Origin: an uncultured Eubacteriaceae bacterium | GTDB taxonomy: Bacteria > Bacillota > Clostridia > Lachnospirales > Lachnospiraceae | DNA: 64,000 bases | Assembly: GCA_947066895.1 (NCBI GenBank) | Contig: CAMTAA010000002.1 | Span: forward strand, 12,786-76,785 | Direction: 5' to 3' | Shown here: positions 35,081-35,352 of the stretch, piece by piece | Position numbering within the stretch: position 1 is the stretch's first letter | Layout of the letters: each line of letters starts with the position of its first letter | Notes under the pieces: model-generated | The model's input: only the letters and a program-made list of their open reading frames with translations | Told to the model about the DNA's origin: nothing | Databases searched by the model: none | Program-made: the position numbers and the translations under genes

Positions 35081-35352
35081 GGGGGGTGGGGACGCTAGAA
35101 CAAAGAAGCAATTTCTTGCTGACGTTCCGCTCTCCGAAAAGTAAGAAAGTCTAACGCTTTTGAATTTTGATGCATCCAGCCGGACGGACCGGGGTGCAAT
35201 TCGCCCGTGCAGCGGGCTAAACACACCCCTTTTTTTGCCATTCGGGAATGGCAAAAAATCCTAGTGGATCGACAAAAGCGTAAGACTTTCTAACTTTTCT
35301 CCGAAGTCACGTCAGCAAGAAATTGCTTCTTTGTTCTGGCTGATTTATCCTG
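35081..35352 (+). repeat. Family A repeat, copy A5 (subfamily beta)
   Basis: ggggggtggggacgctagaacaaagaagcaatttcttgc ... gcaagaaattgcttctttgttctggctgatttatcctg. Internal ggggtg..cacccc + T7 + gccattcgggaatggc + A6. Starts 23 nt after the pncB stop. Confidence 0.85.

Follow-up and report, generated by a model that had tools for sequence, protein, structure and literature searches.

Covarying palindromic elements, treated as a variant of the TwoAYGGAY motif, at gene boundaries in a mouse-gut Lachnospiraceae species

The 64,000-nt stretch analysed here (hereafter the window) belongs to contig CAMTAA010000002.1 of an uncultured Eubacteriaceae bacterium (assembly GCA_947066895.1). Between a NAPRTase gene (open reading frame (ORF) 33565-35058) and a thiamine pyrophosphate (TPP) riboswitch ahead of the thiM-thiE-thiD-thiC operon (RF00059, 67.7 bits, 35588-35698), it carries a copy of a ~250-nt, near-perfectly self-complementary dispersed element, termed family A. 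The site at 35189-35260, flagged in an initial annotation for compensatory base changes, is the two-hairpin apex of this copy, A5 (35090..35342, + strand), whose head lies 31 nt past the stop codon of the NAPRTase gene. The apex reads c-GGGGTG-caattc-GCCCG-tgcag-CGGGC-taaaca-CACCCC-T7-GCCATtcgggaATGGC-A6. Hairpin 1 (35191..35229) consists of an outer helix, GGGGTG (35191-35196) paired with CACCCC (35224-35229), and an inner helix, GCCCG (35203-35207) paired with CGGGC (35213-35217); in hairpin 2 (35231..35258), GCCAT-loop-ATGGC is set between a T-run and an A-run. The orientation in which the copies were first written, the + strand of the window in the case of A5, is referred to below as the annotated strand. 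On that strand the G-rich head flank of A5, GGATGGGGGGTGG (35077..35089, +), pairs through G-U and G-C with the U/T-run of its tail, ATTTATCCTGCCGATAG (35343..35359, +; family consensus TYTTTTCCTGCCGGTAG), a flank arrangement that assigns A5 to the T class described below. A tandem array of 66 nt x 2.6 (35360..35527, +) follows directly 3' of the tail.

Compensatory changes and strand of the fold

Nine copies of the element (A1 to A9, 235-253 nt each) were extracted from the window, in which the core pattern CAATTCGCCnnTGCAGnnGGCTAAACA has nine matches against 0 expected from shuffles. The division of these copies into two subfamilies by paired substitutions in hairpin 1, put forward in the initial annotation, was recovered exactly as claimed for both the outer and the inner helices, with GGCACG/CGTGCC and GCCTC/GAGGC in the alpha copies (A1, A7, A8, A9) and the beta helices in A2-A6. 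The accompanying switch in hairpin 2 was likewise borne out, with GCCAT..ATGGC in A1-A6 and GGGCAC..GTGCCC in A7-A9, and the two hairpins combine in three haplotypes, not two. The outer long stems also covary between copies, as proposed. The helices had been placed in the left arm only, which is wrong: both hairpins cap the long hairpin at its apex, with one of its arms on either side.

A scan of species-representative genomes with a pattern from the 3' arm returned at least 120 loci and, among the matches listed, nearly all came from one mouse-gut Lachnospiraceae metagenome-assembled genome (MAG), MGBC128194, and a few from a second MAG. The window is 98-99% identical to MGBC128194 over 21 kb and therefore represents the same species. 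A profile built from the nine copies found 209 non-overlapping matches in the window and the listed loci, 135 of them full length, which adds at least 126 full-length copies of the same species to the nine of the window. The sampled DNA amounts to ~0.77 Mb, about a quarter of one genome, and many of its contigs end inside a copy.

Among the 135 full-length copies, hairpin 1 is of the beta type in 99 and of the alpha type in 23, and other fully compensated outer helices (GGGATG/CATCCC, GGCGTG/CACGCC, GGGGGG/CCCCCC, GGTACG/CGTACC) and inner helices (GCCTG/CAGGC, GCCCC/GGGGC) were found. The GGGATG and GGCGTG outer types are intermediate between alpha and beta; GGGGGG/CCCCCC occurs with GCCTG/CAGGC, GCCCC/GGGGC occurs with GGTACG/CGTACC and also with GGCACG/CGTGCC, and one recombinant copy joins a beta outer to an alpha inner helix. 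Only three of the 135 outer helices are uncompensated. Across the family, hairpin 2 also exists in compensated variants (GTCAT/ATGAC, GGGCAC/GTGCCC, CAGGCAC/GTGCCTG), and relatives carry the outer helices GGGGCG/CGCCCC, GGAGCG/CGCTCC and GGTGCG/CGCACC. The initial annotation had named two clonal types lacking intermediates, or many uncompensated disruptions, as findings that would contradict it; there are more than two clonal types, intermediates are present and uncompensated disruptions are rare.

In a formal count over 89 distinct apical sequences, whose cell numbers are inflated by the kinship of copies within one genome, 98.8% of apical cells were paired against 88.7 +/- 0.4 in shuffles (0 of 500 reaching the observed value), and 161 cells were changed on both sides against 31.8 in shuffles. 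Double changes affect nine of the 21 apical pairs, and in a control in which the partners were slid by 1-3 columns only 38-57% of cells remained paired. The compensatory changes are real, independently recurrent and present in every helix of the element. The initial annotation read them as the signature of selection on secondary structure; of this the compensation itself stands, and a constraint on a single-strand fold is its most economical explanation. Taken alone, Watson-Crick covariation cannot tell selection from arm-to-arm template switching in a palindrome, nor can it tell RNA from single-stranded DNA.

The pairing constraint extends below the apex. The two adjacent hairpins are enclosed by a long closing stem of 25-35 bp which is hypervariable and still paired: random copies differ at 51% of its positions, compared with 17% for the core, and at many positions three of the four Watson-Crick pair types, or all of them, are present. 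Counted over the whole element, there are 8170 Watson-Crick cells, 88 G-U, 149 A-C and 75 other, the helices being ~96% Watson-Crick. The idea that the variable stem represents duplicated target DNA was rejected, as the conserved helix GCCAGAG/CTCTGGC lies outside the stem and bounds it there.

The fold is strand-specific, and the strand is not the one first chosen: helices that depend on G-U pairs, minimum free energies and the Rfam model discussed below all favour the complement of the annotated strand. The complement is more stable in 128 of the 135 copies, by 8-15 kcal/mol; for A5, the + strand folds at -130.7 kcal/mol (z -14.6) and the - strand at -136.9 kcal/mol (z -13.0). On the complement, the nine window copies share a consensus fold of 92 pairs, 42 of them with a compensatory change, and contain ~53 G-U cells versus 2 A-C cells. 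Helices formed only there by means of G-U pairs are UGUUUA/GAAUUG, which extends hairpin 1, the mini-hairpin AUCC..GGAU, and GUCCG..UGGAU. The 6x6 'internal loop' CAATTC/TAAACA of hairpin 1, invariant in sequence, turns into U-G, G-U, U-A and U-A pairs on the complement only, and pairs 120-146 (UG) and 121-145 (GU) of the consensus fold are invariant. A mini-hairpin on the annotated strand, CCGG-ACGGA-CCGG, was considered as a CsrA-like site and rejected: its column 10 varies freely (C/T/A/G), and it would compete with the covarying outer helix.

Gene-polar layout and the two flank classes

The layout of the copies is strictly gene-polar. Copies less than 1.5 kb apart form 58 tail-to-tail pairs and no head-to-head pair. 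In 58 copies the head adjoins the 3' end of a gene running the same way (typically at 4-80 nt, median ~35-50 nt), and in 60 it adjoins the start of a gene that is directed away (typically at 50-250 nt). The polarity is fixed, the head being turned toward the nearest gene and the tail toward the gap between transcription units, and two flank classes, T and P, correlate with gene context. T copies lie ~35 nt past stop codons and run co-directionally with the gene; their head flank is G-rich and their tail is TYTTTTCCTGCCGGTAG. P copies lie 50-250 nt upstream of start codons in the opposite orientation, with a head flank ending in CCCAAAGA and a tail, TATTGTCCCACAATTTACGTTTC, that includes the palindrome ATTGT-N3-ACAAT. 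In T copies, pairing of the G-run with the T-run adds 7-9 G-U, G-C or A-U pairs, only on the annotated strand, which is here the gene-direction strand; of 45 T-type copies, 35-45 can pair at each of flank positions 1-7, and A-C is never seen at positions 1-6. On the same strand, a U-tract of six or so U begins 2 nt past the G+C-closed hairpin, and T-type copies display the predicted layout of an intrinsic terminator, a stable hairpin followed by a U-tract and co-directional with the gene. Mismatches also differ between the classes: on the annotated strand, the ratio of G-U to A-C is 49:47 in T copies and 15:59 in P copies (Fisher p 5.5e-5), a difference that fits an RNA read in the direction of the flanking genes.

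Within the window, five copies on the + strand are of the T type. Besides A5 they comprise A1 (3842..4094), which follows a histidine-kinase gene and combines an alpha hairpin 1 with a GCCAT hairpin 2; A2 (20296..20546), which follows an M32 carboxypeptidase gene and whose G-rich head flank is amplified in an array of 35 nt x 5 (20115-20292); A4 (30450..30699); and A6 (39749..40001), located 46 nt past the thiC stop codon. A6 is the left partner of a tail-to-tail pair with the P-type copy A7 (40172..40406, -), whose head lies 122 nt upstream of an HD-domain gene and whose tail is TATTGCCTCACAATTTACG; the spacer between them (40002..40171) contains T-tail and P-tail motifs and an array of 45 nt x 2.8 (40027-40152). 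A3 (24539..24779, -) has a P-like tail and a head 116 nt upstream of ORF 24896-25231. A8 (51083..51331, +) is the left partner of another pair and has a type-II core and tail, yet follows the 3' end of a gene. The P-type copy A9 (51781..52016, -) has the tail motif GAAACRTAAATTG, which is repeated in an array of 39 nt x 7.4 (51489-51770). Six of the 13 tandem arrays of the window abut family-A copies (3795-3835, 20115-20292, 35360-35527, 40027-40152, 51045-51097, 51489-51770), and these amplify the G-rich head flank, a spacer motif or the P-tail motif GAAACRTAAATTG; arrays are also present in many pair spacers of other loci. Hairpin-induced slippage and amplification of a binding site are both possible causes.

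The genes flanking the copies are ordinary housekeeping genes. Public gene calls and mechanical ORF lists lay spurious ORFs of up to 167 aa over copies and arrays, examples being L137:2973-3476 and L139:2514-3017 in the sampled DNA (numbers preceded by L denote its loci) and 39494-39913, 40130-40381 and 51459-51740 in the window. A tRNA-Leu(CAA) gene (24134-24217) lies just upstream of A3. The window also holds a second, unrelated dispersed repeat of ~50-58 nt (…GAGCAAGTAGCGAAGCGGATTGCGAATATCCGATTTGAC…) at 5563-5612, 7798-7847, 33457-33508 and 62126-62176; it contains the hairpin CGGAT-TGCGAAT-ATCCG and recurs at more than 25 further loci, e.g. L089:1-58, its copies being 94-100% identical. 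A conventional terminator-like hairpin (49970-50034), with a weak false microRNA (miRNA) match, follows ORF 48840-49925, and 30789-33227 encodes a protein of 812 aa whose major-vault-protein shoulder and repeat domains (PF11978, PF17795) are unusual in a bacterium.

Relation to the TwoAYGGAY motif and persistence at sites

The Rfam family RF01731 (TwoAYGGAY), with a gathering score of 43 bits, matches A5 when this copy is scanned alone (68.1 bits, 35129..35306, - strand, model positions 1-168, the full model) and matches A3 over the full model (68.2 bits, 24570-24745, + strand). Both matches lie on the strand opposite to the annotated orientation; the initial annotation had missed the agreement of the fold with this catalogued motif. 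A scan of the whole window reports only A3 out of the nine copies, and A6 and A7, scanned singly or together, gave no Rfam match at E<=10. Long hairpins of this kind also draw spurious 'significant' miRNA matches, and since these receive small E-values, E-values are inflated for such hairpins. TwoAYGGAY was described as a 'very large' P1 stem with two hairpins (Weinberg et al. 2010, PMC2864571), its published alignment shows multi-copy occurrence in Psychromonas ingrahamii, and its function is still called unknown in papers of 2025-26. Family A resembles it in the consensus folds, which have a long closing P1 stem around two adjacent hairpins, the second being a two-part helix, in the covariation support and in the host, an uncultured mouse-gut Lachnospiraceae MAG with many copies, TwoAYGGAY being known from Clostridiales and gut bacteria with several copies per genome.

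The family differs from TwoAYGGAY in several respects. The AYGGAY terminal loops are absent on the matched strand, which instead has CUGCA (with variants) in one terminal loop and UCCCGAA or UU in the second; one loop of the relatives reads AUGGAA, but it does so on the opposite strand. In the portion of the published TwoAYGGAY alignment that was available, none of the family-A signature strings searched for was found, only CCGUCCGG, three times. Family A reaches ~40 nt further on each side, with the GCCAGAG/CTCTGGC helix and the hypervariable stem, and its two flank classes, its gene-polar layout and the ~75-nt domain that its relatives insert in one loop are not described for TwoAYGGAY in PMC2864571. 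Because the fold matches and the AYGGAY loops are missing, family A is treated here as a divergent, lineage-specific variant of the known motif. The relatives in question, from the second MAG (L016, L030, L050, L112) and from a sister species (L121:7320-7649), have the conserved ~75-nt domain in the hairpin 1 loop, and their hairpin 2 is longer, its loop reading ATGGAA on the annotated strand; their complement strand is more stable by 14-36 kcal/mol. Internally deleted derivatives (L121:7735-7860, L083:2124-2230) retain the closing stem and the internal loops and have lost the apex.

Comparison with related species and strains indicates that copies reside at their sites for a long time. The gap between thiC and the HD-domain gene, 826 nt in the window with the T+P pair A6 and A7, is 778 nt in the sister species (ThiC 92% identical), where it holds a diverged T copy and a truncated P copy; two further relatives (ThiC 90-91%) have a gap of only 119 nt, which includes a promoter of its own. 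The T copies of the two species at this same site keep the fold with at least 14 double changes. The gap between pncB and the TPP riboswitch contains A5 and the tandem array in the window and measures ~50 nt in the sister species; the riboswitch promoter region aligns between the two, and the ~470 nt upstream of it, comprising A5 and the array, have no counterpart there. Among five strains, 13 of the 826 sites of the A6/A7 region are variable and both copies are common to all; the paired origin of changes is not visible at this level because 13 variable sites are too few. All copies compared are common to strains at 98-99% identity, and no near-identical copies exist, nearest-neighbour divergence of the core being 2.7-12.6%. 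At the riboswitch locus, two isolated, divergent copies of the head motif GGACGC (35746-35751, 35778-35783) lie between the riboswitch terminator and thiM, and in L121 a solo GGACGCCAGA occupies the equivalent position (about 3545-3560); remnants and chance occurrences are both possible. In the sister species, a serine recombinase gene (Resolvase + HTH_17; L121:1014-1691), absent from the window, is inserted upstream of pncB.

A link of the hairpins to a HUH/RAYT-type or TnpB-associated protein, suggested in the initial annotation, found no support. The sampled DNA encodes an IS200-type TnpA (L089:312-755, -), 5.7 kb from the nearest copy, and TnpB-like ORFs (L096:1364-2557, L016:4968-6158, L050:21-728), none of which adjoins a family-A copy. 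The end hairpins of the IS200 element (CCACCTGC..GCAGGTGG and CCACCGGC..GCCGGTGG) are unrelated to family A, comparison of the IS200 locus with the element by blastn-short giving only chance matches of 9-14 nt. No RAYT gene flanked by copies was found in the ~0.77 Mb searched. Neither the listed flanks nor the ends of the nine copies in the window show a visible target-site duplication; filled and empty sites between the sister species are too diverged for the junctions to be defined. The element is absent from viral contigs (two patterns), PLSDB plasmids and INPHARED phages. A metagenome pattern, GCAATTCGCN{9,39}GCTAAACA, was discarded as too permissive, its 120 matches (soil, marine, other) being due to chance and none belonging to the family by nhmmer.

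Known palindromic repeats, candidate roles and competing explanations

The REP, BIME and REPIN sequences of Proteobacteria are simple hairpins of ~20-40 nt, mobilised by RAYT transposases whose genes are flanked by REPs, and REP elements at operon ends can stabilise the upstream mRNA. Family A shares with REP and BIME sequences the high copy number, the intergenic position at operon ends and the frequent arrangement in inverted pairs with conserved linkers; it differs from REPs in that its unit measures 250 nt and bears a multi-helix apex, and the ends of the one Y1 transposase seen are unrelated to it. The Correia (nemis) elements of Neisseria and the ERIC elements of enterobacteria are intergenic repeats of at least 100-150 bp; transcribed together with the genes next to them, they form long RNA hairpins and affect termination, processing and mRNA stability. 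Both end in defined inverted repeats and duplicate their target (TA for Correia), whereas family A shows no target duplication, and both are devoid of a conserved multi-hairpin apex or a hypervariable compensated stem. T-type copies are also similar, by sequence layout, to intrinsic terminators, with a hairpin followed by a U-run 2 nt on, ~35 nt past the stop codon and co-directional with the gene, but they have ten times the size that a terminator requires, a conserved, sequence-specific apex and a G-run paired with the U-tract.

It is tentatively proposed, at somewhat less than an even chance, that family A derives from a dispersed repeat and acts in cis, as an RNA structure, at the boundaries of transcripts. 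The copies would do so within transcripts running in the direction of the flanking genes. T-type copies would work as intrinsic terminators or as hairpins protecting the 3' end, and P-type copies would form either a leader or, in front of the next promoter, a barrier or second terminator. A putative protein partner may use the conserved apex and the symmetric internal loops as its platform, and the family would once have spread as a repeat and now be maintained in place. A more far-reaching version holds that one RNA module in two polar forms serves as a genome-wide 'punctuation' of transcription units, T directly behind stop codons and P a short way ahead of the next promoter, invariably tail-to-tail and at hundreds of loci, each copy being selected for its fold and read by a dedicated putative protein through the four-way apex and the symmetric CUCCGAA internal loops; taken as a whole, this version appears rather unlikely.

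Several observations weigh against the proposed role at transcript boundaries. Both termination and the direction of transcription are inferred from sequence, and 250 nt of conserved architecture exceed what termination calls for, so that a further function or a mobility requirement must exist. The difference between T and P copies in G-U to A-C mismatches may partly be a mutational strand bias because unpaired columns trend similarly (C>T:G>A 33:14 in T, 14:16 in P, p 0.055). A8 breaks the T/P rule, the downstream tract of P-type copies, UCUUUGGGA, is only weakly terminator-like, and T copies still carry the G-U helices specific to the complement strand, which an origin from one shared source strand would explain no less well than a local function. 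Simple terminator and promoter scans around A5 and A6/A7 returned nothing, the hairpin exceeding the loop limit of the scanner, and inspection of tails and spacers by eye for sigma-70, extended -10, sigma-28 and sigma-54 motifs revealed weak resemblances only.

One competing explanation is selfish, non-autonomous mobile DNA of the kind represented by miniature inverted-repeat transposable elements, REPINs or PATEs, in which the helices would be single-stranded DNA hairpins for a transposase or recombinase and the layout would mirror insertion tolerance. A single-strand transposition intermediate predicts that one strand bears the G-T/G-U-dependent helices whatever the genomic orientation, as is the case here, and the very high copy number, the assembly breaks inside copies, the presence or absence of copies between sister species at two sites and the internally deleted derivatives point the same way, as do the tail-to-tail pairs with a conserved linker, which recall REP/BIME organisation, and the IS200-type TnpA and TnpB-like proteins encoded by the species. 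Against mobility, the copies show no visible target-site duplications and have no near-identical partners (nearest-neighbour core 2.7-12.6%), no polymorphism was seen among strains (all compared copies being shared at 98-99% identity), and the element is missing from the collections of viruses, plasmids and phages. The IS200 element has unrelated ends, no copy in the quarter or so of one genome searched adjoins a transposase gene, and the two flank classes with their 58:0 polarity are hard to obtain from tolerance alone. Mobile DNA is accordingly a possible explanation, held with some doubt. Unlikely, and somewhat more so than mobile DNA, is compensation of purely mutational origin, by template switching or arm-to-arm conversion in a quasi-palindrome and with no selection on the fold. 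This would account for a closing stem that evolves ~3x faster than the core yet is near-perfectly paired, stepwise compensation being expected to be slower, and the six of 13 tandem arrays that abut copies suggest replication slippage at hairpins. Against it stand the conserved unpaired segments and invariant G-U pairs, which denote a sequence- and strand-specific constraint, and the strand asymmetry of P-type mismatches (15 vs 59); short helices (5 bp with a 5-nt loop) also covary, and a 250-nt element kept at one site across species argues for selection against deletion. Template switching could, moreover, create double changes while selection still retains them.

The Rfam match itself brings in a trans-acting small RNA or protein sponge of the Csr/Rsm kind, each copy being an independent gene, since RF01731 belongs to Rfam clan CL00106, and GGA motifs on the complement strand lie near the junction and within the 5' internal loop. 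Of the four on that strand, two are unpaired and two buried in helices, the terminal loops of the matched strand are without AYGGAY, the two regions scanned around A5-A7 have no sigma-70-type promoter, and hundreds of copies with hypervariable stems are unlike known sponge organisation; no CsrA homologue was detected by tblastn in the sampled DNA, a weak negative given the approximate B. subtilis query and the partial genome. A sponge is improbable on these grounds. Least probable is a founder effect, in which two or three clonal types would differ at paired positions by chance. Two types do make up 122 of the 135 copies for hairpin 1, and kinship within one genome inflates the cell counts, but at least nine fully paired outer-helix types, four inner-helix types and at least four hairpin-2 types exist, including alpha-beta intermediates and types from other species, many closing-stem positions have three or four Watson-Crick pair types, and double changes affect 9/21 apical and 42/92 whole-element pairs. 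With so many independent compensated types, intermediates and double substitutions in all helices, the founder effect can for practical purposes be discarded.

TwoAYGGAY has been an orphan motif since 2010, and the hundreds of natural variants that this lineage has in a single genome provide a ready-made mutational scan of the fold. In practical terms, gene callers put spurious ORFs across the copies, and Rfam annotates about one in nine of them. A layout in which 3' ends have T copies, promoters are preceded by P copies and the polarity is 58:0 is clear and itself testable. If the copies set transcript boundaries, the family would show how a dispersed repeat becomes a genome's standard terminator or insulator and would explain why assemblies of these gut bacteria break at operon boundaries; if the 'punctuation' of transcription units proved true, it would be the first function for the orphan TwoAYGGAY class.

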